In this document: positions 15,778-61,105 of the stretch, in pieces
Layout of the letters: each line of letters opens with the position of its first letter
Numbering within the stretch: the first letter of the stretch is position 1
Source: Candidatus Limnocylindrales bacterium
GTDB lineage: Bacteria; Chloroflexota; Limnocylindria; Limnocylindrales; CSP1-4
DNA length: 64,000 bases
Direction of reading: 5' to 3'
Assembly (NCBI GenBank): GCA_035692005.1
Contig: DASSII010000100.1
Location: 5,554-69,553 of the forward strand
Position numbers and translations under genes: made by a program
The notes under the pieces: model-generated
Database searches by the model: none
What the model was told of the DNA's origin: nothing
The model's input: the letters and a program-made list of their open reading frames with translations, nothing else

Positions 15778-15841
15778 GAGCCGCAACGATACGGGACGCG
15801 GCCCGCCAACGCCCGGAGGGCCGCAGGCCGCCCGCGCGGGC

Positions 15842-18562: not shown

Positions 18563-18581
18563 GGCGATGTGTGGGACGCCA

Positions 18582-30617: not shown

Positions 30618-30842
30618 ATGTCTGACATCCGCATCCGAGCCCGCTCGTGCATCGCCGATCCCGAGCTGGCTCGTGCCGCCACCGTCGACCTTCCGACCGC
30701 GGTCACGTGGCGCCGGCCACATGCGCCGCGAGCGGTCGTCGAGACGCTCGTCGAGGCGCTCGCCGCGGTGCGCTCGCAGAGCGAGCCCGAGCGGGTCATC
30801 GTCCTCAGCCTCGCCGCCGTTCCGGTACGCGCCCGGCGCTGA
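30618..30842 (+). CDS. Possible small ORF (74 aa) upstream of the cyclase
   Basis: The ATG at 30618 follows the only relatively AT-rich stretch of the intergenic region. No family recognised; it may be non-coding leader. Confidence 0.25.
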   Translation: MSDIRIRARSCIADPELARAATVDLPTAVTWRRPHAPRAVVETLVEALAAVRSQSEPERVIVLSLAAVPVRARR

Positions 30843-30856
30843 CCGGGCGGCGCGAG

Positions 30857-36660: not shown

Positions 36661-37823
36661 CAGGGCCGGGTCGTCAACGCCGTGATCGCGCCGCGGGCCA
36701 TCACCACGTCCTCGCGGGCATGGACCCGCAGGATCGCCACACCGTCCGACGCCGCGGCGATGACCGCATCGCGCTCCGCTCCGCCCACCGGTTCTGTCGG
36801 CGGAACGGGCACGCCCATCGACCCCAGTCGTTCGCAGATCGCCCTCCGGACAGCGACTGCGTGCTCGCCGATCCCGCCAGTGAACACGATCGCGTCGATC
36901 GAGGGCAGCGTCGTGACCGCGGCCGCGATCCCGGCGGCCGCCCGGCGAACGAACAGGGCGATCGCCATGCGGGCCCGTTCGTCACCGTCCGCGGCCGCGC
37001 CTTCGAGGGCGCGCATGTCGGCCGAGCCGCCGACTCCGAGGAGGCCCGAACCGTGGTCGAGGTCGCGCTCGATGTCGTCGGCCGGCAGGCCGGCGCGCAG
37101 CAGGCGGAACACGATGCCCGGGTCGATGGAGCCGGCGCGGGTGCCCATCATCAGCCCCTCGAGCGGGGTGAGGCCCATCGACGTGTCGATCGACCGGCCG
37201 GCCTCGACCGCCGTCACCGAACAGCCCCCACCGAGATGGGCGACCACGAGGCGGAGCGCGTCGACCGGCCGATCGAGCAGGCTCGATGCCCGTCCCACGG
37301 CCCACTCCACGGACAGGCCGTGGAATCCGTAGCGCCGGATCCCGTAGTCGATGGTCCAGCGATCCGGCACCGGATAGCGCCGTGCGGCGAGCGGCATCGT
37401 CGCGTGAAAGGCGGTGTCGAACAGGGCCACCTGCGGCGTCGAGGGCAGGCGCTCGCGGGCGGCCTCGATGGTGGCCACCGCCAGCGGGTTGTGGAGCGGC
37501 GCCAGGTCGACCACGCGGGTGAGGGCGTCGATCACCTCGTCGTCGATGCGGACCGGGGCGCTGAACCGCTCGCCCCCATGGACGACTCGATGCGCCACGG
37601 CCGCCAGCGACTCGGGGGCGATCCCGGCGTCGGCGGCCGCCGCGTCGAGGACGGCATTGATCGCCGCGCGGCGCTCCGCCGGTGGGGCGGCGGCCGACCA
37701 GTCGATGGTCTGCTCGAACAGAGCTGTCTCGTCGGGCAGGTCGAGGACGGTGCCCTTGAGGGTGGCGGAACCGGCGTTGAGGACGAGGACCCGTCCGGCG
37801 ATCGGTGCGCTCAGTAGGGCCAC
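36660..37823 (-). CDS. ackA: Acetate kinase
   Basis: Motifs [35 protein letters not shown] and IVFTGGIGE are present. The nearest in-frame start is GTG at 37823, 13 nt inside the phosphoketolase gene. Confidence 0.85.
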
Positions 37824-40189: not shown

Positions 40190-40250
40190 CGTGCCACCTC
40201 GTTGGATCGGTGCGTCGGGCGTGGCCCTCCAGCCTACTGCGACGCGAGGT

Positions 40251-47370: not shown

Positions 47371-48093
47371 TCAGGTCCGTCCGATGTGCTCGAGCAGGCG
47401 TCCGCCGTCGTGCCAGGCATCGGGGTGCAGCCGCCGGATCCGATCGGCCTCGACCCGGGCGAGCGCCGCGAACGGTGTCTCGCCGCCGGTCAGCAGGCGG
47501 ACCCGCCGGTAGCGGGCGGTCGCGTCGCGCAGGAAGGCGGCATACCGGGCGAGGGGGGTCGACTCGGCCAGCATCGCCTCGAAGCCGGGCACGTAGTCGA
47601 CAGTCACGAGCAGACGCCCGAAGAAGGCCCCGACGGCGTCGGCACCTTCGTCCCAGCCCTGCGAATGACCGCCGCGGCGGAGGAGCGGCGCGGACGACTG
47701 GAAGCTGACGATGACCGCATCGTCGATCACGTCGGCAGCGCACCAGCCACCGAACGCCAGATACTCGTTGGAGACCCCGAGCCGGTCGGTGATCCGGATC
47801 TCCCCCCACGAGAACTCGGTGTGCAGCGGCATCCTCGAGCGGCGGGTGATGTCGCGCCGGCTGCCACGGGCGGACGTGCTGGCCCAGAACTCGACGAACT
47901 CCGGGTCATAGTGCTCGAACGTCGGAGTGCGACGCAGCGCGACGATGAGCGACGCCGGTCCCGGTCGATCCGGCAGGTCAGGATCGGCCAGAAATCCCCA
48001 GCCGGCCAGCCGATGCGCAGCGACGCGCAGGATCTCGGCGTCCGCACCGGGTGCAGCTGTCTCGACGCGGACGGGCGCGGTGTCCAGCATCAT
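47371..48093 (-). CDS. Hypothetical protein (240 aa), translationally coupled to the hemerythrin-like gene
   Basis: ATG at 48093 overlaps the upstream stop (ATGA). Non-repetitive sequence. No family recognised. Confidence 0.5.
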   Translation of the reverse strand: MMLDTAPVRVETAAPGADAEILRVAAHRLAGWGFLADPDLPDRPGPASLIVALRRTPTFEHYDPEFVEFWASTSARGSRRDITRRSRMPLHTEFSWGEIRITDRLGVSNEYLAFGGWCAADVIDDAVIVSFQSSAPLLRRGGHSQGWDEGADAVGAFFGRLLVTVDYVPGFEAMLAESTPLARYAAFLRDATARYRRVRLLTGGETPFAALARVEADRIRRLHPDAWHDGGRLLEHIGRT

Positions 48094-48563
48094 CGATGGA
48101 CCCCCTCGGCTCCGACACGCTCCCCGTCGAGCAGCGGCAGGAGGTATCGCTCCTCGCGTTCGAGGTGGGCGTCGAGCATCGCCTCGAGCGCGAACAGGTC
48201 GCGTTCGACGATCCGGGTGTGCGGTCCGTCGGCCCGGCCGAGCTCGACCAGGCGATCGCGGACGCGACCGGCCAGGCGGGCGATCTGGCGATGGTCGAAG
48301 CGGATCGAGCGGGTCGCCCAGTCGGTGCCGGCCAATTCGTCGAGCTGGGGATAGAGCCAGCCCTCCTCCCAGGCCATGTGCGGTGCCAGCACGAGGTCGA
48401 TCCAGCGGCATACGTGTCGGACGCGCTCGACGGCCTCGGGCCGTGGGCCCTCGCTCAGCGCGATGGCCGCCTCCCGGATCTGATCGATGCCCGGGCGGAT
48501 CTCGACGTGCTCGTGTTCGGCAAACGCACGCATGGCATGACTGGCGAGAGCGGTGCGCGTCAT
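48090..48563 (-). CDS. Hemerythrin-like (HHE cation-binding) domain protein
   Basis: ATG at 48563. Helical protein with spaced His/Glu ligand-like residues (FAEHEHVEIRP..., LAPHMAWEEGWLYP, FDHRQI, LDAHLEREERYLLPLL). Confidence 0.65.
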   Translation of the reverse strand: MTRTALASHAMRAFAEHEHVEIRPGIDQIREAAIALSEGPRPEAVERVRHVCRWIDLVLAPHMAWEEGWLYPQLDELAGTDWATRSIRFDHRQIARLAGRVRDRLVELGRADGPHTRIVERDLFALEAMLDAHLEREERYLLPLLDGERVGAEGVHR

Positions 48564-48587: not shown

Positions 48588-48613
48588 GTGGTCAGAACGA
48601 TGCGCCTGACCAC
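48588..48613 (-). promoter_or_regulatory. Inverted repeat in the hemerythrin gene leader
   Basis: gtggtcag (48588..48595), N10, ctgaccac (48606..48613). It overlaps the direct repeat gaacgatg at 48581..48588 and 48595..48602. It lies 25-50 nt upstream of the ATG. Confidence 0.3.
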
Positions 48614-48770
48614 CCACGCGGCCCAGTGCCGAGCGACCCGTCCCCGAGGGTCGGGATGGCCCGTCGACCCACGCGCCGGGGTTCGGGCCGGGCGGCTCGC
48701 CCGATGGTGACTTGTGGCCCGTGAACGGGGGATGGCGCCACACCGACCATCGTGCTCTAGGAGGTCAGCC

Positions 48771-49010
48771 ATGCATACCCTGTCGCCGCGCCGCCGACCG
48801 AGCGCCGACGGACGCGCCCTCACGGTCGAGGCCGGCCAGGTCGTCTGCCCGCGCCGCGGGCTCGTCGACCTGGAGGTGTGCTGGGTGTGTCCGGCCTACC
48901 GCGGTCTGAGCACGGGCCATTTCGAGGGCGTCCTGTGTTCGACCGGGGCCAGCCTGATGTCCACCGTCGGCAGCTGGCTACCGACGGTCGCCGGCGACAC
49001 GAAGCGTTGA
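48771..49010 (+). CDS. Small Cys4 protein (79 aa), hypothetical
   Basis: Strong Shine-Dalgarno (taGGAGGtcagccATG). Cysteine pattern C-x10-C-x2-C-x14-C. First gene of the plus-strand run leading into the hydrogenase genes. Confidence 0.45.
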   Translation: MHTLSPRRRPSADGRALTVEAGQVVCPRRGLVDLEVCWVCPAYRGLSTGHFEGVLCSTGASLMSTVGSWLPTVAGDTKR

Positions 49011-49022
49011 CGGGGGCCGGCC

Positions 49023-49499
49023 ATGACGCTCGAAGCGGATCCGGTAGAGGAGCTGGTCGCCCTCGGGATCGCCGCTGACCTGTCGGGCGCCGCTCGACGG
49101 CGCCTGGCCACGATCGCCCGCATCGAGGAGCTGCCGGCCGGCAAGGTCGTGTTGCGCGAAGGCCAACCCACCCTCGAGCTCGGCGTCGTGCTCGATGGCC
49201 GGGTCGCGCTCCAGACCCATCTGCCGGGGCGCGCTGACCTGACCCTGATGACCCTCGATCGAGGCGACATCTTCGGCTGGTCTGCCGCGCTCGGCGATCC
49301 GTCGACGTCATCGGTCGTCGCGCAGGTGCCGACCCGCGCCGTGCTGCTCGAACGCGACGGATTGCTCGACGCGCTCGCCGCCGACACCGAGTTCGCGGCC
49401 GTGATCTACCGGCGCCTGTTCCAGGCCGTGACCAGCCGCCTCGTGGCGACCCGCCTGCAGCTCCTCGACCTGTACGCCAGCGCCGAGGGCCGGGCATGA
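49023..49499 (+). CDS. Stand-alone cyclic-nucleotide-binding domain protein
   Basis: 158 aa. CAP effector-domain pattern (VVLREGQPTLELGVVLDGRV..., GDIFGWSAAL). No output domain. Its stop overlaps the start of the hydrogenase diaphorase gene (ATGA). Confidence 0.7.
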   Translation: MTLEADPVEELVALGIAADLSGAARRRLATIARIEELPAGKVVLREGQPTLELGVVLDGRVALQTHLPGRADLTLMTLDRGDIFGWSAALGDPSTSSVVAQVPTRAVLLERDGLLDALAADTEFAAVIYRRLFQAVTSRLVATRLQLLDLYASAEGRA

Positions 49500-51511
49500 C
49501 CACACGGCCCGAACCGCCCGTCGCCCACGACGATCCGCCGCGCTTCCTGCCACGAGCCGAACTCGATCGGCTGTTCGGGGCCCTGCGCGCGACAGGTCGC
49601 ACGGTGATCGGCCCGACGATCCGGGAGCAGGCCGTCACCTATGACCAGATCGACGGCACGGATGACCTGCCCATCGGCTGGACGGCAGACACGGCCCCCG
49701 GGACCTATCGCCTCACGCGCAACGACGGCGTGCGGGCGTTCGACTACGGCATCGGCCCGACCGCCTGGAAGCGCTATACGCATCCGCCAAGGATCCCGCT
49801 GACGGTCAGCGCACCGTCGCCGGTCGGCCCGACCGTCGCGCCCGTGACGCCCGACGCACCGCCGCTCGCGTTCGTTGGCGTCCGCGCCTGCGAGCTGGCC
49901 GCCCTGCGCATCCAGGAGCGGGTCATGCGCGCGGGGCCGGCCGGTGACGTGGATCACGCGGCCCGGCGAGACGCGGCGCTGGTCGTCGCGGTGGAGTGCG
50001 CCGTCGCCGGATCGACCTGCTTCTGCACCTCGATGGGCACCGGACCCGAGGTCGGCGAGGGCGCCGACATCGTGCTGTCCGAGCTCGATGAGGGCTTCGT
50101 CGTGCGTGCCGAGAGCGGGCCAGGGCAGGTCGTCGTCGACGCCCTCCGGGTCGACGCCGCGAGCGATGATCAGACCGGGCGGGCGACGGCCCAGGTGGCG
50201 GAGCTCCGCGAGACGATGGGCGACCCCGTCCCGACGGCGGGCCTGCCCGAGCGGCTGCGCGCGGCCATCGACCACCCGCACTGGGCCGAGATCGCCGAGC
50301 GCTGCCTGGCATGCACCAACTGCACGCTCGTGTGTCCGACCTGCTTCTGCACCAGCGTCGGCGTGGCCTCGGATCTTGACGGCCAGGCGGCAACGACGGA
50401 TCGGACCTGGGACAGCTGCTTCAGCCTCGGATTCGGGCGGGTCGCCGGCGACGCGAACTTCCGGCCGCGCGTCGCGGACCGCTATCGCCAGTGGCTGACC
50501 CACAAGTTCTCGACCTGGTGGGACCAGTTCGGGTCGTCGGGTTGCGTCGGCTGCGGCCGTTGCATCGCCTGGTGCCCGGTCGGCATCGACGTCCGGGCGG
50601 AGCTGTTGGCGGTGGCCCCGCCGCACGCGCCGGCGGGACCGATCCCGTGGCCCGTCGCCCCGCCGGACGGCCACGCCCCCGCTCCGCTGGCGACCGTGGA
50701 GCCGGCACGCTACGTCGAGACCGAGGTGACCGACGTCCGCCGCGAGACGAACGACACGGTCACGTTGCGGCTGGCGACCGACGATGCGGCCCTCCTCGCG
50801 GCGCAGCCGGGCCAGTTCGTGATGGTCGCCCAGCCCGCCCAGTCGGCGCCGCCGATCTCGATCTCGCGGATCCTGCCCGACGCGCTCGAGCTGACCATCC
50901 GGCATGTCGGCCCGGCGACCGCCAGCCTGACCGCCGCCCGGCCCGGAGGACGCTTCGCGCTGCGCGGGCCGATGGGCCGGCCCTGGCCGATCGACGAAGC
51001 ACGCGGCCGCGACGTCGTCATCGTCGCCGGCGGGATCGGGCTCGCTCCCCTTCGGCCGGTGCTCGATGCGGTCCTGCGCGATCGGCCGCGGTTCGGTGCC
51101 GTGCGCATCTTCCACGGCGCCCGGACGCCCGCCGACCGCCTGTTCGTACCGGAGTTGGCGGCGTTGGCCGGACGAGTCGACGTCGAATTCGCGGAGATCG
51201 TCGATCGCGCCGGACCCGACTGGTTCGGCCGGGTCGGCGTCGTGACCCAGCTGTTCGAGCACGCGACGTGGGCCGGGGCGGGCGCCACGGCCTTCATCTG
51301 TGGACCGGACCGGATGATGCAGGCCACGGTCCGCGGCCTGGCCGCGCATGGCCTCAGCGCCGACCGGACGTGGGTCACCCTGGAACGCAACATGGCCTGC
51401 GGCGTGGGCCTGTGCGGCCACTGCCAGCTCGGACCGTACTTCGTGTGCCGTGACGGGCCCGTCTTCTCCGTCGCCGAGCTCGGCGATGCGTTCACGACGG
51501 AGGGCTTGTGA
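49496..51511 (+). CDS. Fused hydrogenase diaphorase subunit: HyhB/AsrA-like 4Fe-4S domain plus HyhG/AsrB-like FAD/NAD(P)-binding 2Fe-2S domain
   Basis: The N-terminal half has CFCTSMG, CLACTNCTLVCPTCFC and CVGCGRCIAWCP. After a Pro-rich linker come an FNR-like module (ISISR, VVIVAGGIGLAPL) and the C-terminal cluster CGVGLCGHCQLG. Confidence 0.8.
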   Translation: MTTRPEPPVAHDDPPRFLPRAELDRLFGALRATGRTVIGPTIREQAVTYDQIDGTDDLPIGWTADTAPGTYRLTRNDGVRAFDYGIGPTAWKRYTHPPRIPLTVSAPSPVGPTVAPVTPDAPPLAFVGVRACELAALRIQERVMRAGPAGDVDHAARRDAALVVAVECAVAGSTCFCTSMGTGPEVGEGADIVLSELDEGFVVRAESGPGQVVVDALRVDAASDDQTGRATAQVAELRETMGDPVPTAGLPERLRAAIDHPHWAEIAERCLACTNCTLVCPTCFCTSVGVASDLDGQAATTDRTWDSCFSLGFGRVAGDANFRPRVADRYRQWLTHKFSTWWDQFGSSGCVGCGRCIAWCPVGIDVRAELLAVAPPHAPAGPIPWPVAPPDGHAPAPLATVEPARYVETEVTDVRRETNDTVTLRLATDDAALLAAQPGQFVMVAQPAQSAPPISISRILPDALELTIRHVGPATASLTAARPGGRFALRGPMGRPWPIDEARGRDVVIVAGGIGLAPLRPVLDAVLRDRPRFGAVRIFHGARTPADRLFVPELAALAGRVDVEFAEIVDRAGPDWFGRVGVVTQLFEHATWAGAGATAFICGPDRMMQATVRGLAAHGLSADRTWVTLERNMACGVGLCGHCQLGPYFVCRDGPVFSVAELGDAFTTEGL

Positions 51512-52371
51512 TGACGCTCGCGGCAGCGACCTCCGGGCGGACCGCGGTCCCCGCCCGACCACGCATCGCCATCGTCAAGTTCGCCTCGTGCGACGGCTGC
51601 CAGCTGACGCTGCTCGATCTCGAGGACGAGCTGCTGGCCATCGCCGAACGGATCGACCTGGTCGAGTTCGCCGAAGCGACCTCGCAGCGCTCGTCCGGTC
51701 CCTACGACGTGCTGTTCGTCGAGGGATCGGTCAGCACCCCCGAACAGGCCGAGGAGATCGTCCGGCTGCGGGCCGCCTCGACGCTGCTGGTGACCATCGG
51801 CGCGTGCGCGACCTCGGGCGGCATCCAGGCGCTGCGCAACTGGGCCGACCACGATCTCGTCCGCGCGGCCGTCTATCCGGACCCGACGATGGTCGACTCG
51901 CTGGCGACCGCCACGCCGATCGCCGATCACGTGGCGGTCGATGCGGAGATCCGGGGCTGTCCCATCTCGCCCGCCCAGCTGCGCGAGTTCGTCACCGCCC
52001 TGCTCGTCGGGCGGCGGCCCGGCCTGCCCGATGAAGCGGTCTGCGCCGAATGCAAGCGGCGCAACATCGTGTGCGTCGCGGTCGCCCGCGGCATCACCTG
52101 CCTGGGACCCGTGACGCGTACCGGTTGCGGTGCCCTGTGTCCGGCCTACGGTCGCGGCTGCTACGGCTGCTTCGGGCCGCGCGAGTCGGCCAACGGGCCG
52201 GGGCTCGCCCGCTGGCTCGAGCGCGACCTGCCCCCGGCCGACGTGGCACGGGCGTTCGCCCTGTTCAACGCCTGGTCCCCGCCGTTCCGGACCGTCATCG
52301 ACGAGGCCGGCGGACCACCCGGGCCGATCGACGGCAGGCCGACCCCGGAGGCGAGCGATGCACACCACTGA
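51508..52371 (+). CDS. [NiFe]-hydrogenase small subunit, group 3 type (NuoB-like)
   Basis: Motifs KFASCDGCQ, GACATSGG, IRGCP and the C-terminal Cys-rich ferredoxin-like part CAECKRR...CLGPVTRTGCGALCP...CYGCFGP are present. The start overlaps the upstream stop (GTGATG). Confidence 0.85.
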   Translation: MMTLAAATSGRTAVPARPRIAIVKFASCDGCQLTLLDLEDELLAIAERIDLVEFAEATSQRSSGPYDVLFVEGSVSTPEQAEEIVRLRAASTLLVTIGACATSGGIQALRNWADHDLVRAAVYPDPTMVDSLATATPIADHVAVDAEIRGCPISPAQLREFVTALLVGRRPGLPDEAVCAECKRRNIVCVAVARGITCLGPVTRTGCGALCPAYGRGCYGCFGPRESANGPGLARWLERDLPPADVARAFALFNAWSPPFRTVIDEAGGPPGPIDGRPTPEASDAHH

Positions 52372-53689
52372 GCAGCTCAGCGGGGGCCCGGATGTCGCCG
52401 ATCTGACGATCGACGTCCGCAACCTCACCCGGGTCGAAGGCGAGGGCTCGCTCCACCTGCAGGTGCGCGATGGCGTCGTCGAGTCGGCACGTCTCGAGAT
52501 CTTCGAGGCGCCGCGCTACTTCGAGCGCCTGGTGGTCGGTCGGACGATGGACGAGGTCATCGACATCGTCACCCGCATCTGCGGCATCTGCCCGGTCGCC
52601 TACCAGATGACCGCCGTCCACGCCGCCGAGGCGGCCTTCGGCATCGACGTCGACCCGGCCGTGGCCGCCCTGCGCCGCCTGTTCTACTGCGGCGAATGGA
52701 TCGAGAGCCACGCCCTGCACCTGTACCTCCTCCACCTGCCCGACTTCCTCGGTTATCCGAGCGCCCTCGACCTGGCCCGCGACCATCGATCGGCGGTCGA
52801 GGGGGGCCTCCGGCTCAAGCGGGCCGGTAATCACATCGTGGCCACCATCGGCGGGCGGGCGATCCACCCGGTATCGGTCCGCGTCGGGGGCTTCTCGCGG
52901 ATCCTGCGGCGCGACGAGATCCGGGCCCTGCGCGCCGATCTCGAGGAGGCGCTCGGGCTGGCCGAGGCGACCATCGATCTCGTCGCGACCCTCCAGCCAC
53001 CCACATTCCGCCGCGACATGCGGCTCGTGGCGCTGCGCGACCCGTCGGCCTACCCGATGAACCACGGCCGGATCGTGTCGAACGACGGGATCGACCTGGC
53101 GGCCGACGCCTGGGAGTCGCTGTTCGACGAGCACCAGGTGGCCTGGTCGCACGCGCTGCAGGCGCACGCGCCCGACGGCCGACCGTACCTCCTCGGGCCG
53201 GCGGCGCGCGTCACGCTCGACGGCGACCGGCTGCATCCGCGCGCCGCGGCAGCCCTCGACCGTCTGGGGCTGGCCGACGAGATCGCCCATGAACCCCATT
53301 GGAGCATCGCCGCCCGGGCGATCGAGCTCGTGCACGCCGTGGCCGAGGCGATCGACATCGTGGAGGCATACGAACCACCGCTCGAGGCCGCCGTGGCATG
53401 GCGTCCGCGAGCGGGCCGCGCCGCGTGGGCGACGGAGGCCCCGCGCGGGATGTTGTTCCAGCGCTTCGATCTCGATGAGGGTGGTTGCGTCACGGACGCC
53501 CGGATCGTGCCACCGACCAGCCAGAACCAGGCGGCCATCGAAGCGGACCTCGCCGCCTTCGCCCCGACCGTCCTCGAGCGGCCTCGAGCGGAGGTCACCC
53601 ACCTGATGGAGCAGCTGATCCGCAGCTACGACCCGTGCATCAGCTGCGCCACCCACTTCCTGGATGTCCAGGTGGAGGAACTGTCATGA
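52358..53689 (+). CDS. [NiFe]-hydrogenase large subunit, group 3b-like
   Basis: ATG at 52358. N-terminal metal-site motif RICGICPVAY and C-terminal DPCISCATH. About 443 aa. The AsrA/AsrB-like partner subunits point to group 3b. Confidence 0.9.
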   Translation: MHTTEQLSGGPDVADLTIDVRNLTRVEGEGSLHLQVRDGVVESARLEIFEAPRYFERLVVGRTMDEVIDIVTRICGICPVAYQMTAVHAAEAAFGIDVDPAVAALRRLFYCGEWIESHALHLYLLHLPDFLGYPSALDLARDHRSAVEGGLRLKRAGNHIVATIGGRAIHPVSVRVGGFSRILRRDEIRALRADLEEALGLAEATIDLVATLQPPTFRRDMRLVALRDPSAYPMNHGRIVSNDGIDLAADAWESLFDEHQVAWSHALQAHAPDGRPYLLGPAARVTLDGDRLHPRAAAALDRLGLADEIAHEPHWSIAARAIELVHAVAEAIDIVEAYEPPLEAAVAWRPRAGRAAWATEAPRGMLFQRFDLDEGGCVTDARIVPPTSQNQAAIEADLAAFAPTVLERPRAEVTHLMEQLIRSYDPCISCATHFLDVQVEELS

Positions 53690-54258
53690 CTGCCCTGCTG
53701 CCGACGGGGCCATTCGCCCCGGAGTCGGATGTCACCGAGCTGAGCCCGGAGGTGCATCACCTGGTCACGATCCGGGTCGAGATCCTCGCCTGCGGTGCGC
53801 CCGACCGGGGGGACGACGGGGCCGCGATCGCGGCCGTCGCCCGCCTCGCCGACGCGATGCCCGAGGACGTGCGCATCCGCATCGTCGGCCAGCTCGACAT
53901 CGACGACCTGCTGGCCGTGCCTGCCGGCGCGGGGGCCATCGTCGTCGACACGGCGGTCGGCATCGACCCGGGCTGGATCGTGGAGATCCCCTTCCGGGGC
54001 CTGGCCGGACGCGAGTCGGGCATCCGTCCGCGCTCCTCGCACGCCCTGTCCATCCCCGAGACCATCGGGGTCGCGTCGATGATCCGTGGGCGGCCGCTCG
54101 AGGGCATCGTGGTCGCCATCGGCGGCGTCGACTTCGGGCTCGGTGACTCGCTCAGCTGGCCGGTCATCGCCGGCATGGACGCGTTCACGATGGCCATCGC
54201 CGATGCGGTCCGGCGGGTGCGCGAATCGGTCGTGCGGGTCCCCGTTCCGCGTCGCTGA
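53686..54258 (+). CDS. Hydrogenase maturation endopeptidase (HycI/HoxW family)
   Basis: ATG at 53686 overlaps the large-subunit stop. ILACGAPDRGDDGAAIAAV matches the G-x-G-N/D-x3-DDG pattern. Confidence 0.7.
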   Translation: MTALLPTGPFAPESDVTELSPEVHHLVTIRVEILACGAPDRGDDGAAIAAVARLADAMPEDVRIRIVGQLDIDDLLAVPAGAGAIVVDTAVGIDPGWIVEIPFRGLAGRESGIRPRSSHALSIPETIGVASMIRGRPLEGIVVAIGGVDFGLGDSLSWPVIAGMDAFTMAIADAVRRVRESVVRVPVPRR

Positions 54259-54281
54259 CGTCGCCACAGCCCGGCGTGATC

Positions 54282-54311
54282 CGGCGGGCGGGTCCCCGCA
54301 TCCGCCCGCCG
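54282..54311. terminator. Bidirectional hairpin between the convergent hydrogenase and SQR-like operons
   Basis: ggcgggcgg (54283..54291) pairs with ccgcccgcc (54302..54310) around a 10-nt loop. A flanking c/g pair extends the stem. Confidence 0.45.
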
Positions 54312-54315
54312 ACGA

Positions 54316-55473
54316 TCAGATCCGGCCGCGCGGCACCGTGTGCCAGTACGTCTTGTTGAAGACGATCTTGCCGAGGTGCCACAGCTGGTTGGGGCGCGGT
54401 GGACGCGGCGGATGGTCGTAGTCGAACCGCAGCATCGTGCCCTTGCCGTCGCCGATCTCGAAGAAGCACATGACCCGGCCTTCGTAGTCGGCGTGCTTGC
54501 CGGCCGGCTGCCGACCTTCGACGGAGGCGACGATCCGCTCGGTCACCACCGGGGCCTCGAAATGCGCCGTCGAACCGGCCTTGGACAGCGGCAGGTCCGT
54601 GGCGTCACCGAGCGCATAGACGTTGGGGCGGTCGGCCACCTGGAGGGTATGGCGGTCGGTCGGCAACCAGCCGCCGGGGGCCGGCGCCAGGCCGGCGTCG
54701 ATCAGGAACTGCTGGCCCTTGTGCGGCGGGACAAGGATGAGCAGGTCGTACGGCAGCTCCTCCCCCTCCAGGCTGCCGATGACCTTGCGCACCGGGTCGA
54801 TCGTCTCGACGTTGAAGAAGGTGTGCAGCTCGATCCGCTTCTCGGCCAGGATCGGCGTTGCCATATCGGACACGGACTCGATGGTGAAGGCCCGTCCGAT
54901 CGGCGAGCAGAAGTGGATCTCCGAGGCGTCGCGCAGCCCACGTCGACGGAGCTCGTCCTCGATCAGGAAGGCGACCTCGAGGGGCGCCGGCGGGCACTTG
55001 TAGGGCATCCCCGCGATGCCGATGACGATGCGCCCGCCACGGAACGCGTCGAGCGCCGCGCGCAACCGCGTGGCGGCCTCGGCCGTGTAGAAGTGGTGAG
55101 CCTCGGTCGCGAAGTGGTCGATCGCCTCGGGCACGAGGCGGGATCCGGTCGCCACCACGAGATAGGCGTAGTCGAACGTGCGGCCATCGGCCAGCCGGAT
55201 CCGTTGGTCGGCCTCGTCGAGAGCGACGATCTCGCCGACCTCGAGGCGCACGCGGGAATCGAGCAGACTCCGCTCCGGGCGCTCGAGGTGGTCGGCGCGT
55301 TCGCCGCCCATGGCGATGTACATGAAGCCCGGCTGGTAGACATGCGACCCGGTCTGGTCGAAGACGACGACCTCGATCTCCCCCCGGTCGATCCGCTGCC
55401 GCAGGCGGCGCACCAGGAGATTGGCGGTGAGGGTCCCGCCGACCCCGCCGCCAAGGATGGCGATCCGTTGCAT
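54316..55473 (-). CDS. Sulfide:quinone oxidoreductase-like FAD-dependent oxidoreductase
   Basis: Motifs IAILGGGVGGTLTAN, MPYKCPPAPLEVAF and ALGDATD are present. 385 aa. Confidence 0.7.
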   Translation of the reverse strand: MQRIAILGGGVGGTLTANLLVRRLRQRIDRGEIEVVVFDQTGSHVYQPGFMYIAMGGERADHLERPERSLLDSRVRLEVGEIVALDEADQRIRLADGRTFDYAYLVVATGSRLVPEAIDHFATEAHHFYTAEAATRLRAALDAFRGGRIVIGIAGMPYKCPPAPLEVAFLIEDELRRRGLRDASEIHFCSPIGRAFTIESVSDMATPILAEKRIELHTFFNVETIDPVRKVIGSLEGEELPYDLLILVPPHKGQQFLIDAGLAPAPGGWLPTDRHTLQVADRPNVYALGDATDLPLSKAGSTAHFEAPVVTERIVASVEGRQPAGKHADYEGRVMCFFEIGDGKGTMLRFDYDHPPRPPRPNQLWHLGKIVFNKTYWHTVPRGRI

Positions 55474-55482
55474 GGGGTCCTC

Positions 55483-55728
55483 CTAGCGTCGCTTCTCGAC
55501 GACGATCTCGTCATACCCCTCGCGCGTCTCGACGCCGACCAGCCGATGGCCGGCTTTCTCGACCCACTTGGGGATATCGGTCCGCGAGCCCTGGTCCGTC
55601 GAGCGGACGGCGATGACCGTGCCGACGTCGGATTCGCGGATGACGCGGATGAGCTCCATCAACGGGCCGGGGCAGTAGCTGCCTCGAGCGTCGACGATGC
55701 GCGTTTCGGAGGTGGAGGTCTCGATCAT
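55483..55728 (-). CDS. TusA/SirA-family sulfurtransferase
   Basis: ATG at 55728. Active-site motif DARGSYCPGPLM (CPxP). 81 aa. Confidence 0.75.
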   Translation of the reverse strand: MIETSTSETRIVDARGSYCPGPLMELIRVIRESDVGTVIAVRSTDQGSRTDIPKWVEKAGHRLVGVETREGYDEIVVEKRR

Positions 55729-55745
55729 GGCGATCACCCGGCTTG

Positions 55746-56309
55746 CTAGATGAACAACGGGACGGAGTCTTCGGTCATCAGGCCGATGACGGTGGCGGCG
55801 CCCACGGGCTCGCCCATGCCATCGACCATGTCGTCGGGCTTGAGCCCGAACATGTCCATCGTCATCTGGCAGGGGATGAACTCGACGCCCATCGCCTGGG
55901 CGGCTTCGAGCAGCTCCTTGGGGCTGGCCACATGGTGCTTGCGGGCGAGCCGACGCATCATCCACGGGCCCATCCCGAAGAAGTCCATCTTCGACAGCTT
56001 CCGATGGCTGATGCCCGGCCGCTGCATGACCGACATCATCTTCTGCATCCAGTCGTCGCCGGTCACCCGTCGGTCGTCGCGGACGAACACGGGCAGTCCC
56101 CAGAACGTCACGAACACGCGGGTCCGGACGCCCATCGCGGCACTCGTCGAGGCGAGGATCATCGTCGCCCAGACCTTCTCGAGGTCACCGCTGTAATCGA
56201 TGATGAGGATGTCCTTGGGCTTGACCGCGGCGTCGGGCGCGGGCGCGGGCTCCGGGGTGGTCGTGACGAGGGGGGCGTCGAGCGGACGCTCGATCGTGGT
56301 GGTAGGCAT
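55746..56309 (-). CDS. DsrE/DsrF-like family protein (long form)
   Basis: ATG at 56309. The core ILIIDYSGDLEKVWATMILASTSAAMG...FVTFWGL...FIPCQMTMDMFG resembles DsrE2/DsrE3-type proteins. Confidence 0.6.
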   Translation of the reverse strand: MPTTTIERPLDAPLVTTTPEPAPAPDAAVKPKDILIIDYSGDLEKVWATMILASTSAAMGVRTRVFVTFWGLPVFVRDDRRVTGDDWMQKMMSVMQRPGISHRKLSKMDFFGMGPWMMRRLARKHHVASPKELLEAAQAMGVEFIPCQMTMDMFGLKPDDMVDGMGEPVGAATVIGLMTEDSVPLFI

Positions 56310-56317
56310 CGGGGACC

Positions 56318-56554
56318 TCACGTTCGGCGGATGACGAAGCGGTACACCGCGCCGTCCGAGGACTGATCGACCAGCTCGTTGCCGGTCGCACGGCACCAGG
56401 CGGGGAAGTCCTTGACCGATCCGGCGTCGGTCGCCAGGACCTCGATCACGGCGCCGCTGGGCAGGCCCTTGATGGCCTGCGCGGTCTTGACGATGGGCAT
56501 CGGGCAGGCGAGCTGCCGGGCGTCCACGGCAAGGTCGATCTCGACGAGTGGCAT
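56318..56554 (-). CDS. TusA/SirA-family sulfurtransferase (second copy)
   Basis: ATG at 56554. Motif DARQLACPMPIV (CPxP). 78 aa. Confidence 0.75.
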   Translation of the reverse strand: MPLVEIDLAVDARQLACPMPIVKTAQAIKGLPSGAVIEVLATDAGSVKDFPAWCRATGNELVDQSSDGAVYRFVIRRT

Positions 56555-56579
56555 GGCGGTCACCTCAGGCTGGATCGGA

Positions 56580-56993
56580 TCAGATGAAGACCACTTGGCC
56601 GTCACCGGCGTTCAGGTAGAAGGCGGTGACCCCCTCCACGCCATCGACGAGGGGGTCGAGGTCGGACGGAGTCAGGCCGAGGAGGTCCATCGACAACGAA
56701 CACGCCTGGATGTCGACCGCCCCGACGTCCTTGGCCATGCGCAGTGTCTCGGCCCACGGTGCCTGACCCGCGCGGGCCAGCGCGTCGACCGCGGCCCGGC
56801 CCGCTTCGCCCGCCTCCGGGGCGAGCCCGTGATCGCGCAGGATCCGGTCCGATCGGAAGGCGTCGAGCGCCCAGTACTGCAGGAACAGGTTGACGGGCTT
56901 GCCGAGCGCGGCCGCACCCGCGGTCAGGACCGCGGCAGCCTGCAGCTTGTCATCGGTGCCCGAGAACATGACGAGATTGAGCGGCTCTGCCAT
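56580..56993 (-). CDS. DsrE/DsrF-like family protein (short form)
   Basis: ATG at 56993. Motifs LNLVMFSGTDDKLQAAAVLTAGAAALG...NLFLQYWAL...IQACSLSMDLLG are present. 137 aa. Confidence 0.6.
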   Translation of the reverse strand: MAEPLNLVMFSGTDDKLQAAAVLTAGAAALGKPVNLFLQYWALDAFRSDRILRDHGLAPEAGEAGRAAVDALARAGQAPWAETLRMAKDVGAVDIQACSLSMDLLGLTPSDLDPLVDGVEGVTAFYLNAGDGQVVFI

Positions 56994-57228
56994 CGATGCG
57001 CCCCTTTCCCCCGCAGGGTGCGCCGCGACGGGCGGCTCGGCAGCGGCCGAGCGGCCCCAATCGAACGGGTACAACGGCCCGCGGCCTCCCGGAGGCGGGC
57101 CGAACGGCCCGCGTGTTGGGGCCGGACGCCACGTCCGGTCAGGCCTGTCAGCCGCGAGGCTGGCGCTACACGGATGCGTGGTTCGGCGGCCCCCACAGGC
57201 CGCCCAAGGCAGGCACAGGAGCGCGGAG

Positions 57229-57666
57229 ATGACACCCGACGACGACCGGCACGCGGCGCCCACCAGCCGCACCGTCGGCGACCTGATGACCCTGGAGCCG
57301 GTCGTGATCCGGTCCGATGCCTCGCTGTCCGAGGCCGTCCAGCTGATGGACCTGCACGCCGTCGGCGGGCTGCCAGTCGTCGACGGCGCGGGCGATGTGG
57401 TCGGGGTCATCACCAAGACCGACCTGGTCAACGCGCGCGCCACCGAGTACCTGTGGGCGAACTGGGACGAGCTGGGCGTGCGCCACCTGATGACCAGTCC
57501 GCCGCTGACGATCCGGCGGTCGACGACCCTCGACGTCGCGACGCGCCGGATGGAACGCCACCATGTCCACCGCCTGGTCGTGGTGGCCGATGACGACCCC
57601 GCCCTGCCCATCGGCGTCATCACCACGACCGACCTCGTGCACGCGCTCGCCCAGGACACGCAGTGA
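57229..57666 (+). CDS. CBS-domain pair protein
   Basis: ATG at 57229 with an AGGAG-like Shine-Dalgarno. Two CBS repeats (VGDLMTLEPVVI...GLPVVDGAGDVVGVITKTDL; VRHLMTSPPLTI...RLVVVADDD...IGVITTTDL). Confidence 0.75.
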   Translation: MTPDDDRHAAPTSRTVGDLMTLEPVVIRSDASLSEAVQLMDLHAVGGLPVVDGAGDVVGVITKTDLVNARATEYLWANWDELGVRHLMTSPPLTIRRSTTLDVATRRMERHHVHRLVVVADDDPALPIGVITTTDLVHALAQDTQ

Positions 57667-57706
57667 ACGATCGTCGCCGGGCGAGCTGCGTCGAGGGCCC
57701 CTCCTG

Positions 57707-57949
57707 ATGTGCCTCACCTACCCCGGTCTGGTGTTGTCGGTCGGCGACGGCGAAGCCGTCGTCCGGACGGAGGGTCGACAGCGCCGGGCCACCACCCTTG
57801 TCGTTCCGGATGTCGCGGTCGGTGACTGGGTCATCGTCGCGGCCGGTTCCATCGTCACGCGTCTCGACCCGGCCGAAGCGGCCGAGATCCGAGGCTTGAT
57901 CGAGATCGCGGACGGCCACGGAGGATCACCCGATGTCCACGCTCCCTGA
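57707..57949 (+). CDS. hypC: Hydrogenase assembly chaperone HypC/HupF
   Basis: ATG at 57707 gives the hallmark N-terminus MCLTYPG (essential Cys2). It is followed by ...VGDWVIVAAGSIV. 80 aa. Confidence 0.8.
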   Translation: MCLTYPGLVLSVGDGEAVVRTEGRQRRATTLVVPDVAVGDWVIVAAGSIVTRLDPAEAAEIRGLIEIADGHGGSPDVHAP

Positions 57950-58892
57950 CCCGCGTCGCGCCGCCCGGCTCGTGCCCCCGTCGACGGTCGGGGCCGGGCT
58001 CCTGCTGGCCGGCGCCACCGCCCTCATCAGCGGGCTGTCCGTCTTCGTCAACGCGTCCGCGGTGAAGGCCGTGCCGGATCCGGCCGTGTTCACGACGCTC
58101 AAGAACGCCGTCGCCGCGATCGTCCTGCTCGGGCTCGCCACTGCGGTCGTCCGGCCGTCCGACATCGGCGCCATCGGTCGCCGCGATTGGGGCTGGCTGA
58201 CCGCCATCGGCGTGATCGGCGGCGGTATCCCGTTCCTGCTGTTCTTCTCGGGCCTGGCCATGGCCAGCGCCCCATCGGCCGCGTTCATCCACAAGACGAT
58301 GTTCATCTGGGTCGCCCTGATGGCCGGCCCGGTCCTCGGCGAGCGGCTCGGCCTGGCGCCGATCGCCGCCCTCGGGGTGCTGCTCGTCGGCCAGGCGTTG
58401 ATCCTGCCGCCGCTCGGCATCGCCTGGGGCCTCGGCGAGACCCTCATCGCGCTGGCCACGCTGCTGTGGGCCGTCGAGGTCATCATCGCCCGGCGCGTGC
58501 TCGGGCGCGTCCGTTCGCCGATCGTCGGCGTCGCCCGGCTCGGCATCGGGCTCATCGTGCTGGTCGGCTACCTCGTCGTGAGCGGTCGTCTGGCCGGCAT
58601 CGCAACGCTCGATGGCGCGGCCTGGGCCTGGGTGGTCATCACCGGCGGCCTGCTGTCCGGCTATGTCGCGACGTGGTTGGCCGCCCTCCGCCGGGCCCCG
58701 GCCAGTCAGGTGAGCGCCATGCTCGTCCTCGGTGCGGTCATCACCGGCCTGCTCACGACGGTCAGCAAGGGCGTGCTGCCTGACACCACGATCGTGGGTG
58801 GCTACGCGCTCATCGCGCTGGCCGTCGCCGCCATCGCCTGGATCGGGCTGCGCCGGGCGGCCATCGGCCGTCCCGCGCCCCAGGCGACCTGA
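57933..58892 (+). CDS. EamA/DMT-superfamily transporter
   Basis: 319 aa. 10-TM pattern with two EamA-like halves. Overlaps hypC by 17 nt. Confidence 0.75.
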   Translation: MSTLPDPRRAARLVPPSTVGAGLLLAGATALISGLSVFVNASAVKAVPDPAVFTTLKNAVAAIVLLGLATAVVRPSDIGAIGRRDWGWLTAIGVIGGGIPFLLFFSGLAMASAPSAAFIHKTMFIWVALMAGPVLGERLGLAPIAALGVLLVGQALILPPLGIAWGLGETLIALATLLWAVEVIIARRVLGRVRSPIVGVARLGIGLIVLVGYLVVSGRLAGIATLDGAAWAWVVITGGLLSGYVATWLAALRRAPASQVSAMLVLGAVITGLLTTVSKGVLPDTTIVGGYALIALAVAAIAWIGLRRAAIGRPAPQAT

Positions 58893-58906
58893 GCCCGCCA
58901 CAGGCC

Positions 58907-59725
58907 ATGTCCACCTCGCTGCCGCCAGCGGTCACGACGAGCCGGCCATCGCGCCGGGACCGGCGAGTCGAGGCGCCGCTGGCGCCGGTGGCGCCGTCCG
59001 GCCCGGTCCTGTTCGCCCGCTACGCGTATGGGCCCAACCGGTTCGGCTACTGCGGTCCCGACGATGCCGACGAACTGCTGGAGGCGGGCGCGGCGCAGCA
59101 GGACCGGGCCCTGCGCGCGCTCGCCACGCAGTTCGAAGGGGCCTTCCCGTACCTCGCCCTCATTGCCCGCTCGAACGACATCGCCGATCCGCTCGATGCT
59201 CGCGTCGTGGAGGCCTACTGGCTCGGCAACGAGCTGCTCGCCGCGATCCCGGCCGGATCCTTCGGCGCGTCGCTCGACGAACGGTTCCGGAGTCGCGTCC
59301 GCACGGACGCGTGGCGCTGGCTCGCCACCAAGCCTGCGGCCGGCGCCCGACCCGTGCACGCCTTCCACGTCTTCGACGTGTTCCCGCGGGTCGGGCTGAT
59401 CCGGGGCGGCGCCGTCGACGACATCGTCGGGACGATCGATTCGTGCCGCATCCGCTGGGGCCGGGTGCTGGAGCGGATCGGCGAGGAGCTCGTCGTCTCG
59501 GCTCCGCGGCTCGACCTCGTCGACGGTCGACTGCGGCTCGGTCGCGCACGGCCAGAGCGCGTGCGCGCGTGGCGCGACGCGACGGGCTTCATCGATGCCC
59601 CTCGACCCGGCGATATCGTGTCGATCCACTGGTCATGGGCGTGCGACCGCCTGGACGGCCGCCAGCTCGGCAACCTGGTCGCCTGGACCGCACGGCAGCT
59701 GGACATCGCGAACCAGACGATCTGA
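58907..59725 (+). CDS. Conserved-looking hypothetical protein (272 aa)
   Basis: Non-repetitive sequence (FARYAYGPNRFGYCGPDD..., VVEAYWLGNELL, HAFHVFDVFP). I cannot assign a family from memory. Sits 14 nt after the EamA gene. Confidence 0.5.
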   Translation: MSTSLPPAVTTSRPSRRDRRVEAPLAPVAPSGPVLFARYAYGPNRFGYCGPDDADELLEAGAAQQDRALRALATQFEGAFPYLALIARSNDIADPLDARVVEAYWLGNELLAAIPAGSFGASLDERFRSRVRTDAWRWLATKPAAGARPVHAFHVFDVFPRVGLIRGGAVDDIVGTIDSCRIRWGRVLERIGEELVVSAPRLDLVDGRLRLGRARPERVRAWRDATGFIDAPRPGDIVSIHWSWACDRLDGRQLGNLVAWTARQLDIANQTI

Positions 59726-59778: not shown

Positions 59779-61029
59779 TCAGGCGACGGGTTCGCGACCG
59801 CCCTGCCGCGGCACCATCGACACGGCCAGCAGCAGGACGGTGGCCCCGGTCGCGAGCCCGCTGAGGGCGCCCCCGACCAGGACGAGCGTGTCCTGCCCGA
59901 GCGGGACCCCGATGGCGAGGGCGACGACGCCGGCCTCGAAGCCGACGACCCGCAGCCACGCGCCGCGCCCGAGCAGCCCGCGAGCGCGCCGCCGCGATGA
60001 TCCGTCCCCGGGTCCGATGGTCGGCACCAGATGGGCCGCGGCACCGAGCACCGCCTGGAGGACCGTCCCGACGGCGAGCGGCACGCCGACGACCGCGAGC
60101 GACCAGCCGGCCGGGCTCGCACCGGCGCCGATGACCAGTCCCGCGGCGGCCCACACGCCCGCCGCGAACCACGCCGAAGACGCCACCAGCGACCAGGTCG
60201 TGAACGCGTGCCAGCCGGGATCGGTCGTCCAGCGACCGCGGGTCGGCTGGCGGGCAGCCTTGGCCACGTAGGCCGGGACGGCCGCAGCGCCGACGATCGC
60301 CAGCAGGGCACCGGCCCGCGCCAGCGGATCCGCTTCGATCGCGAAGCCAGCAGCCACCGCGCCGACCCCGGCCGCCAGGCCACCGATCGCGACCCACGCG
60401 GTCCGCCCCTCCACGATCCGGGCCCCGAGCACGGTCGGTACCAGGTGGATATACGTCCCGGCGATCGTCAGGCCGACGAAGCCGATCAGGTTGAGCCAGG
60501 CATGGACCGGCTTGAGGACGGCCCATCGCTCGGTGACCGGCGCGAACGTGTGGAGCATCCCGGTGACGAGGGTGACCCCGGCGATGACGAAGGCGATGCC
60601 GACGAGGTAGGCCACCAGGACCGGCCAGCGCTTCGGTCCGAGCGCGCGGCGCATCGGTCCCACGGTCACCGCCGCCAGGCCGATGAGCCCGAGCAGGTAG
60701 ACACCTGCCCCGACGAGCGACGCGGCGCGGGCCGCGACCGGCACTGCCAGCGCGATGGTGAGCGCGCCGACCGCCAAGGCCACGATGACCGCGCCCCGGG
60801 CGACGGGACGAGCGGGCGGCGCCGCCGCCAGGGCTGCCGTGAAGAACGGCATGACCGCGCCGATGGCCACCCCCGCGCCGCCGGTGAGCAGCAGGTGGAG
60901 GGCCATCCACGGTCCCCGCCCCAGCACCACCGCCGCGACGGCGCCGACGACGAAGGCCAGGGCCAGTGCGACCCCGGCCGCGGTCAGCCGCCGATCGGCA
61001 TCGCGCCGGATCGGCTGACGCCCCGACAA
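59779..61029 (-). CDS. Polytopic membrane protein, possibly NnrS-like
   Basis: About 12 hydrophobic segments. HAWLNLIGFVGLTIAGTYIHLVPT resembles the NnrS H-A-x3-L-x-G-F-x4-I-A-G...VP pattern as I recall it. The start is uncertain: TTG at 61029 or ATG at 60906. It lies directly downstream of nirK. Confidence 0.4.
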   Translation of the reverse strand: MSGRQPIRRDADRRLTAAGVALALAFVVGAVAAVVLGRGPWMALHLLLTGGAGVAIGAVMPFFTAALAAAPPARPVARGAVIVALAVGALTIALAVPVAARAASLVGAGVYLLGLIGLAAVTVGPMRRALGPKRWPVLVAYLVGIAFVIAGVTLVTGMLHTFAPVTERWAVLKPVHAWLNLIGFVGLTIAGTYIHLVPTVLGARIVEGRTAWVAIGGLAAGVGAVAAGFAIEADPLARAGALLAIVGAAAVPAYVAKAARQPTRGRWTTDPGWHAFTTWSLVASSAWFAAGVWAAAGLVIGAGASPAGWSLAVVGVPLAVGTVLQAVLGAAAHLVPTIGPGDGSSRRRARGLLGRGAWLRVVGFEAGVVALAIGVPLGQDTLVLVGGALSGLATGATVLLLAVSMVPRQGGREPVA

Positions 61030-61105
61030 CGCGGGTACCCCGGCGGAGGAGGCTCCGCCGGGGTGGGGCTGACCGAGGATCGGGAGGGGGCGACCCACCC
61101 CCGGT

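Follow-up and report, generated by a model that had tools for sequence, protein, structure and literature searches.

Candidate DosR-like boxes upstream of a group 3b [NiFe]-hydrogenase operon and a convergent type III SQR-like sulfur-relay operon in a Limnocylindria bacterium

The 64-kb stretch of Candidatus Limnocylindrales DNA analysed here (the window) contains an 11-kb block in which an operon for a [NiFe]-hydrogenase (hyh) converges on an operon for a sulfide:quinone oxidoreductase (SQR) with TusA and DsrE2 sulfur carriers (the sulfur unit). The first-pass annotation had read the block as a candidate module coupling H2 to a pool of sulfane sulfur. Because the G+C content of the window is 72%, open reading frames were picked by third-position GC and then checked against Pfam and NCBIfam; every gene listed in that annotation was recovered at its coordinates. 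The surrounding genes (~36.7-64 kb) encode acetate kinase, phosphoketolase, flavodoxin, three Usp domains, a P-type ATPase, hemerythrin, a NirK-like protein and an Rrf2 regulator, so that the block lies within a low-oxygen, fermentative island of a Limnocylindria bacterium. Proteins most similar to the hydrogenase, SQR and DUF6390 sequences were all of soil or freshwater metagenome origin, and those with a named source belonged to Candidatus Limnocylindrales or Chloroflexota; an actinobacterial source, considered on account of the high G+C content, was therefore rejected. The features of the block are as follows.

48707..48720, + strand: DosR-box-like site GTGACTTGTGGCCC, 51 nt upstream of the hyh operon
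48771..49010, + strand: mini-protein of 79 amino acids (aa) with four Cys, first gene of the hyh operon; open reading frame with no Pfam or NCBIfam match
49023..49499, + strand: stand-alone cyclic nucleotide (cNMP)-binding-domain protein, no output domain (PF00027, 5e-14)
49496..51511, + strand: diaphorase of 671 aa, a fusion of HydB (AsrA-like, Fe-S) and HydG (AsrB-like, FAD/NAD(P), Fe-S) (Fer4_22, NAD_binding_1, DHODB_Fe-S_bind)
51508..52371, + strand: [NiFe]-hydrogenase small (delta) subunit (Oxidored_q6, 2.5e-22; ShyD, 2e-43; HydD, 2e-41)
52358..53689, + strand: group 3b [NiFe]-hydrogenase large (alpha) subunit, by its RICGIC and DPCISCATH motifs and ShyA match (1e-76)
53686..54258, + strand: hydrogenase maturation endopeptidase (TIGR00072, 1e-13, over the cut-off)
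54278..54317, no strand assigned: GC-rich hairpin between the convergent operons, one arm overlapping the SQR stop codon
54316..55473, - strand: type III SQR-like flavoprotein, last gene of the sulfur operon (NF049943, 2e-99; Pyr_redox_2, FCSD_central)
55483..55728, - strand: TusA 1, Cys motif CPGP in YCPGP (PF01206, 8e-20)
55746..56309, - strand: DsrE2A-like sulfurtransferase (DrsE_2, 3e-40; PDB 3PNX, 5e-14)
56318..56554, - strand: TusA 2, Cys motif CPMP in ACPMP (PF01206, 2e-24)
56580..56993, - strand: DsrE2B-like sulfurtransferase (short DrsE_2), first gene of the sulfur operon (DrsE_2, 6e-14; PDB 2QS7, 3e-19, full length)
57097..57110, no strand assigned: palindromic box GGGCCGAACGGCCC in the divergent DsrE2B/CBS intergenic region
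57229..57666, + strand: CBS-pair protein, divergent from the sulfur unit (PF00571, 8.5e-29)
57707..57949, + strand: HypC chaperone (PF01455, 6e-18; TIGR00074)
57933..58892, + strand: EamA/DMT-family transporter (PF00892, 2e-19)
58907..59725, + strand: DUF6390 protein of 272 aa, helical N-domain followed by a HypC-like OB domain (PF19927, 6e-81)

The translation of the large subunit contains both Ni-Fe ligand motifs (TRICGICPVAY and YDPCISCATHF), which are invariant in 15 homologues. Its best PDB matches are the alpha subunit of Pyrococcus furiosus sulfhydrogenase I (9nez, 4e-68) and the Thermococcus kodakarensis cytosolic enzyme (5yxy, 2e-64), ahead of the Mvh (7e-48), NAD-reducing (5e-39 or weaker) and Frh (1e-39 or weaker) enzymes outside group 3b. 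NCBIfam likewise ranks ShyA and HydA first, with VhuA and FrhA at ~1e-39. The fused diaphorase matches AsrB (2e-47), HydG (4e-41) and ShyB (1e-40). Since the enzyme is closest to group 3b hydrogenases and is accompanied by an AsrA/AsrB-like diaphorase, these rankings assign it to group 3b, as the first-pass annotation had proposed. The four Cys of the mini-protein are invariant across 12 distinct homologues, and the gene for the cNMP protein lies 5' of the hydrogenase genes in nearly all related loci.

The window holds two output-less cNMP-binding proteins and an adenylate/guanylate cyclase (49023-49499, hyh-linked; 18113-18703; 30626-31711). Judged by eye, the hyh-linked protein seems to be without the phosphate-binding Arg (FGWSAALGDPSTSS), and thus its ligand may be something other than a cyclic nucleotide.

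The protease and SQR genes are 57 nt apart, and the hairpin between them (-36.3 kcal/mol, z = -3.0) has a longest unbroken run of 12 bp and no T-tract. Scans for sigma-70 promoters and intrinsic terminators over 48.4-59.9 kb gave no match, such scans being uninformative at the GC content of this genome.

Within the sulfur unit, the sole strong NCBIfam match of the SQR is the type III (selenoprotein subtype) model, at 333 bits against a cut-off of 525. Its nearest PDB entry is human SQOR (2e-32). The Cys residues of PYKCPPAP and VMCFFEIG align with those of VKCAGAP and TSCPLV in the human enzyme, which we take to be Cys201 and Cys379. SQR homologues, in more than 120 clusters at least 80% identical, are every one 385 aa long. 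Both TusA proteins retain the Cys of the CPxP motif; the IPCQ Cys of DsrE2A aligns with the 3PNX Cys and the QACS Cys of DsrE2B with that of 2QS7. The five genes DsrE2B-TusA-DsrE2A-TusA-SQR stay together in the same order, at 70-88% identity, in all loci with enough DNA. In nearly all of the ~45 loci with room for it, a gene of the ArsR/SmtB family lies 38-251 nt (mostly 40-110) upstream of DsrE2B on the same strand. The sulfur unit is thus predicted to be an autonomous operon that usually has its own ArsR regulator. This gene is missing from the window clade and from three further loci (L078, L123 and L124; relatives' loci are designated L plus a number), and there the unit lies in or beside a cluster of hyh or hypoxia-type genes.

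Among solved structures the ArsR protein matches Mycobacterium tuberculosis Rv0081 best (6jmi, 4e-14), followed by BigR (3e-11) and SqrR (3e-7). A two-Cys persulfide sensor of the SqrR/BigR type was considered and rejected because the protein has a single conserved Cys and Rv0081 is its best solved match; the apparent upstream Cys in "CAYVD" is conserved DNA 5' of the start codon. The region upstream of ArsR (L016, L035, L102, L110 and others) contains two DosR-like boxes followed by TGCGCA-N2-5-TGCGCA repeats, and the repeats are probably an autoregulatory ArsR operator.

Conservation of the hyh neighbourhood was followed in 80 species-representative hydrogenase loci (62-95% identity), for which all window proteins served as tblastn queries. 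Nearly all of these loci have the core cNMP-HyhBG-HyhS-HyhL-protease. A sulfur unit lies no more than 10 kb from hyh in seven (L016, L035, L047, L061, L066, L077 and L078) and in 5 of the 49 for which both flanks of hyh reach at least 6 kb; ~90% of hyh loci lack an SQR unit over that 10-kb distance. Seen from the other side, hyh-cluster genes are present at 6 of 13 SQR metagenome loci with at least 8 kb of flank (9/32 when at least 3 kb is accepted) and on one of six long SQR contigs, for a combined long-flank total of 7/19. Linkage thus runs at 10-46%, compared with <1% by chance for a 20-kb span and an assumed genome of a few Mb.

The linked genes take at least five arrangements. The unit is inverted between the protease gene and CBS-hypC in the window clade; it follows DUF6390 on the same strand in twelve loci (L016, L110, L124, L098, L112, L108, L087, L144, L035, L066, L061 and L170); it lies upstream of the hyh operon and is then followed by CBS in L047 and L078; it follows phosphoketolase in L077; and it stands directly 5' of hypC-EamA-DUF6390 in L091. 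With a frequency well over chance and this many layouts, we regard the linkage as real; it is non-random yet loose. The first-pass annotation had asked whether SQR-TusA-DsrE genes occur with hyh beyond chance; in these loci they do. As for conservation of the adjacency itself, the linkage recurs in several layouts, but the exact layout of the window is limited to approximately genus-level relatives: four samples yielded contigs with this layout and a 96%-identical SQR, and an 88%-identity relative probably has it too. In the contexts examined from the ~80%-identity sister clade, the slot flanked by the protease gene and hypC is either empty or taken up by genes for pyruvate:ferredoxin oxidoreductase (PFOR). 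Where hyh is absent, the neighbours of the sulfur unit are genes for PFOR/OFOR, acetyl-CoA hydrolase, CBS and Usp proteins, a formate/nitrite (FNT) transporter, and DosS/DosR homologues.

Both operons of the window are preceded by a similar box. Footprinting of hyh upstream regions gives a conserved element whose position is kept in the 80-99% and ~70% identity clades; its form in the latter is GCGGGACCAATGGCCCTCG, ~45 nt 5' of the cNMP gene. The box between DsrE2B and CBS is kept in a 96%-identity relative (L165) although the flanking sequence differs. The motif, generalised as GKGMC-N4-GGCCC for scans of the window and the loci, is similar to the core of the DosR consensus of M. tuberculosis, TTSGGGACTWWAGTCCCSAA (PMC2275270). 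It has eight distinct sites in the window, giving 12 hits on both strands against 3.45 expected, a number reached in none of 100 shuffles. All eight lie within 40.7-62.6 kb and are promoter-proximal when mapped manually onto gene starts: one each upstream of phosphoketolase, flavodoxin, the second Usp gene and the hyh operon, one each in the divergent Usp/ATPase and DsrE2B/CBS regions, and two 5' of the NirK-like gene (62581 and 62622, at the Rrf2/NirK junction).

Across loci, counting boxes within 350 nt upstream of a gene, the motif precedes the cNMP gene in 40 of 63, the mini-protein gene in 11 of 18, ArsR in 25 of 38 and hemerythrin in 19 of 34. Genes internal to the operons have a box in 0-4% of loci (HydD 0/80, SQR 0/68, TusA 0/80), and 1.3% of random 150-nt windows contain one. 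Enrichment upstream of the hyh, ArsR-SQR and hemerythrin genes is ~30-fold or more. In relatives the box lies ~65 nt upstream of ArsR, and in L102 and L116 the copy is letter for letter that of the window hyh operon, GTGACTTGTGGCCC; this box is followed there by a second one and then by the TGCGCA repeats that resemble an ArsR operator. Since both carry the candidate DosR-like operator, independent regulation of the hyh and SQR operons, which the first-pass annotation had named as a refutation of its own proposal, is improbable.

A second conserved upstream element lies at 48600-48700, between hemerythrin and the hyh operon (CCAGTGCCG(A/T)(G/T)CGACC ... GGGCCGGSCGGCTC), and is also found in L005, L007, L013 and L169. 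It may belong to the divergent gene.

A candidate regulator for the boxes is encoded in relatives. In ~20 loci a GAF-HisKA_3 kinase and a LuxR-type response regulator adjoin hyh or the sulfur unit (L175, at 5249-7089, and L015, L018, L029, L031, L032, L038, L054, L057, L066-L068, L070, L072, L076, L100, L102, L131, L148 and L157). Among solved structures the response regulator matches DevR/DosR (3c3w, 1e-55), and the GAF domain of the kinase matches the haem-GAF domain of DevS/DosT (8e-38). The DosR-like regulator is 81-88% identical over most loci and 69% identical in L070. We found no report in the literature of a DosRS system in Chloroflexota, nor of DosR in connection with SQR, TusA or DsrE.

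Taken together, the boxes and regulators lead us to favour, as the probable explanation, two separate but co-regulated modules of a DosR-type low-oxygen/sulfide regulon that work in parallel, and not one fused H2-sulfur machine. Both operons would be under a DosR-box-like operator driven by a DosS/DosR-type system, whose sensors respond to O2 and redox state, and would be neighbours through their shared regulon. The first module would comprise the operon for the NAD(P)-linked group 3b hydrogenase (mini-protein, cNMP protein, HyhBG, HyhS, HyhL and protease) together with the accessory genes CBS-HypC-EamA-DUF6390. Its most likely role, by analogy with mycobacterial Hyh, would be to balance NAD(P)H by H2 evolution or re-oxidation when respiration is limited; in M. 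smegmatis the group 3b Hyh is induced by DosR and serves in hypoxia to discharge reductant as H2 (10.1101/2023.09.11.557286). In the second module, SQR would most likely oxidise sulfide, passing electrons to quinone and sulfane sulfur to the Cys residues of TusA and DsrE2, as suggested by the protein families and by Methylacidiphilum fumariolicum SolV, in which sulfide induces an operon of type III SQR, TusA and DsrE2 (PMC10205796). The DosS protein of M. tuberculosis binds H2S, which turns on the DosR regulon (PMC9062744). Substrate exchange between the hydrogenase and SQR would not be required. In the window clade, the sulfur operon would have been inverted into the variable slot between the protease gene and CBS-hypC, with loss of the usual ArsR gene.

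Several points weigh against this explanation. The predicted operator departs from the M. tuberculosis consensus in one half-site, GGCCC in place of GTCCC. Half of the window sites are perfect GGGCC-N4-GGCCC palindromes, which are possibly hairpins rather than operators. No DosS/DosR or LuxR-type regulator was found in the 64-kb window, either among ten candidate open reading frames or by tblastn with the L175 proteins. The locus counts are not phylogenetically independent. Finally, the repeated occurrence of tight linkage and the loss of ArsR in the window clade, L078, L123 and L124 could mean a closer functional tie than shared regulation.

Such a tie is the substance of the direct H2-sulfur module, in which SQR would make sulfane sulfur, TusA and DsrE2 would carry it, and the HydB/HydG side of the hydrogenase would reduce it with H2 or NAD(P)H; the outcome would be either H2-driven persulfide reduction or a sulfide/sulfane loop. 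We consider this unlikely, though it survives better than the other alternatives. The membership in group 3b, whose nearest solved representatives show sulfhydrogenase activity, is in its favour, as are the variety of linked arrangements, the absence of ArsR where the unit lies in or beside the hyh/hypoxia-gene cluster, and the candidate operator common to both operons. Strain SolV also has both systems, and its authors suggest that the group 3b hydrogenase reduces S0 with H2 (PMC10205796). Yet most sulfur units are found apart from hyh, often beside PFOR, just as the great majority of hyh loci have no unit nearby, and in the sister clade PFOR genes or nothing occupy the slot. The two operons of the window are on opposite strands, and elsewhere the sulfur unit has a regulator of its own. 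An SQR and a sulfhydrogenase acting together would merely cycle sulfur, and the sulfhydrogenase activity of the P. furiosus enzyme is not regarded as its physiological role. Overall, the coupling of H2 to sulfane sulfur put forward in the first-pass annotation gains no specific support, and nothing favours the hydrogenase over PFOR or the rest of the island as partner of the sulfur unit.

The loop form of this direct module is slightly less likely still. SQR would make carrier-bound sulfane sulfur and reduce quinone while the HydB/HydG side re-reduced the sulfur with H2 or NAD(P)H, for a net transfer from H2 (or NAD(P)H) to quinone. If true, a catalytic sulfur pool on TusA and DsrE2 would be a new route from a soluble hydrogenase to the quinone pool during O2 limitation, turned on by a DosR-type regulon with a sensor that detects sulfide as well.

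Neutral adjacency, in which the sulfur operon would have come to rest in a slot prone to recombination within the hydrogenase cluster, with no functional or regulatory link, appears improbable. The slot does contain different genes in different clades (PFOR genes, the SQR unit or none), the sulfur operon runs on the other strand behind a strong hairpin, and the exact layout is confined to near relatives. Against this, the linkage exceeds the chance expectation for the assumed genome size, has arisen in at least five independent arrangements, and is accompanied by the same box 5' of both operons even where these are not adjacent. Least probable of all, and by our estimate very unlikely, is a biosynthetic supply in which SQR, TusA and DsrE2 turn sulfide into protein persulfide for the Fe-S clusters or thio-cofactors of Hyh and PFOR at low O2: the unit repeatedly adjoins the Fe-S-rich enzymes Hyh and PFOR/OFOR and TusA-family proteins do transfer sulfur biosynthetically in E. 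coli, but no Suf, Isc, Nif or thiolation genes were seen beside the unit in any locus examined, the DsrE2 types are known from dissimilatory sulfur oxidisers, and the closest described operon, that of SolV, serves in detoxification and energy gain and responds to sulfide. The sulfurtransferase families are reviewed in PMC11094781.

Several known systems come close to the two modules. The M. smegmatis Hyh (10.1101/2023.09.11.557286) is, like the window enzyme, a cytosolic group 3b hydrogenase with an AsrA/AsrB-like diaphorase among hypoxia-type genes (Usp and others), and shares with it a DosR-box-like site 5' of the operon; DosS/DosR homologues are near in relatives of the window. The window differs from it in the fusion of HydB and HydG, in an operon that opens with the four-Cys mini-protein and the cNMP protein, in the accessory set HypC-EamA-DUF6390, in its Chloroflexota host, and in the GGCCC half-site, and its regulation is a prediction. 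P. furiosus sulfhydrogenase I and the T. kodakarensis cytosolic hydrogenase have the same four functional modules. Unlike these enzymes, the window proteins match under the NCBIfam equivalog cut-offs, two subunits are fused, and the host is a bacterium that, coming from soil, is presumed to be a mesophile.

For the sulfur unit, the nearest counterpart is MFUM_v2_0219-21 of SolV, in which a type III SQR is grouped (and co-transcribed) with TusA and DsrE2 in an organism that also has a group 3b hydrogenase (PMC10205796). The Limnocylindria unit differs in having two of each carrier (DsrE2B-TusA-DsrE2A-TusA), in usually standing behind an Rv0081-like ArsR gene and DosR-like boxes, and in its physical linkage to hyh in a subset of genomes. 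The first-pass annotation knew of no description of this gene combination as a unit; the SolV operon qualifies that statement as regards type III SQR-TusA-DsrE2, while for the physical linkage and the shared operator we likewise found no report.

In M. tuberculosis, Rv0081 is an ArsR-family member of the DosR regulon and the first gene of the Rv0081-0088 hydrogenase-like operon. The ArsR gene of the relatives is also the first of its operon behind DosR-like boxes, but it heads a sulfur-relay/SQR operon rather than a hydrogenase operon, encodes one conserved Cys and is absent from the window clade; the likeness is limited, in that BigR is not a much weaker match than Rv0081. The cst operon of Staphylococcus aureus (cstR-cstA-cstB-sqr) similarly places SQR and TusA-like sulfurtransferase functions under a dedicated repressor for sulfide detoxification. 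It has a type II SQR, a persulfide dioxygenase and a CsoR-type repressor, whereas the Limnocylindria unit is without an O2-dependent step.

From the motif and regulator matches, a DosS/DosR-type dormancy regulon resembling the mycobacterial one is suggested for Limnocylindria, which are widespread and uncultured Chloroflexota of soil and fresh water. Among its proposed members are a group 3b hydrogenase of fermentative type and a type III SQR-like sulfur-relay operon, the latter absent from the known mycobacterial regulons. Because H2S is bound by DosS in M. tuberculosis, sensing and removal of sulfide by a single regulon would form a coherent circuit, and would explain how such aerobes cope in anoxic, sulfidic microsites. 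The candidate operator is usable for regulon prediction across the class.

The accessory genes HypC-EamA-DUF6390 lie downstream of hyh in 33 of the 49 well-flanked loci. The window HypC and the HypC genes of L005-L084 have Ala (GDWVIVAAG) at the position of the canonical His (vHvGfA), which we take to be His51. The 272-aa protein that had been listed as unknown is not wholly so: it belongs to the Pfam family DUF6390 and has a HypC-like domain. In an AlphaFold2 model built from 30 homologues (pLDDT 83.6), the N-domain is helical and leads into a beta domain that ends in a helix. The top Foldseek match of the model in the PDB is HypC (2z1c_B; probability 1.0, target-normalised TM-score 0.62, E = 0.035). 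Alignment of DUF6390 to the HypC family of the cluster with hhalign is weak (E = 7e-4, probability 26%) and is taken only together with the fold match; it pairs W184-G185 of DUF6390 with P6-G7 of HypC. In this register the invariant Cys180 is opposite HypC Cys2, and the invariant His241 is at the canonical HypC His position. Cys180 is internal, whereas the essential Cys2 of HypC stands at the mature N-terminus. As modelled and aligned, the protein is HypC-like, yet not a member of the HypC family. Its fold and the Cys/His register indicate that DUF6390 is probably a maturation accessory factor for this group 3b lineage, and its position right after hypC-EamA fits such a role. A literature search for DUF6390 found no publication; the putative HypC-like maturation role would be the first functional lead for the family.

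In the sister clade, PFOR genes interleaved with CBS-pair genes fill the slot between the protease gene and hypC, and such genes are also frequent neighbours of the SQR unit (L001/L002, ~11978-16107; L006-L009; L171, L174 and L176). The CBS gene beside hypC in the window may be a remnant of a PFOR-CBS cassette.

The remainder of the island is arranged around the block as follows.

Upstream of the block: acetate kinase and phosphoketolase, flavodoxin, tandem Usp, P-type ATPase, GNAT, polysaccharide deacetylase, another Usp, hemerythrin
Downstream of the block: NirK-like copper protein, Rrf2 regulator, further multicopper protein

Two conserved-looking proteins adjoin these genes without a Pfam or NCBIfam match: a 346-aa open reading frame beside hemerythrin (47371-48411, - strand), the equivalent of which is ~235-240 aa long in relatives, and a 530-aa multi-pass membrane protein downstream of DUF6390 (59779-61371, - strand). 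The segment 61106-64000 (- strand) encodes a NirK-like copper nitrite reductase with an N-terminal cupredoxin, the Rrf2-family regulator and the further multicopper protein. At the opposite edge of the island, phosphoketolase (XFP) and acetate kinase stand in tandem (36660-40192, - strand) with a palindromic box at 40714 upstream of both, a pairing that fits substrate-level ATP formation under O2 limitation.

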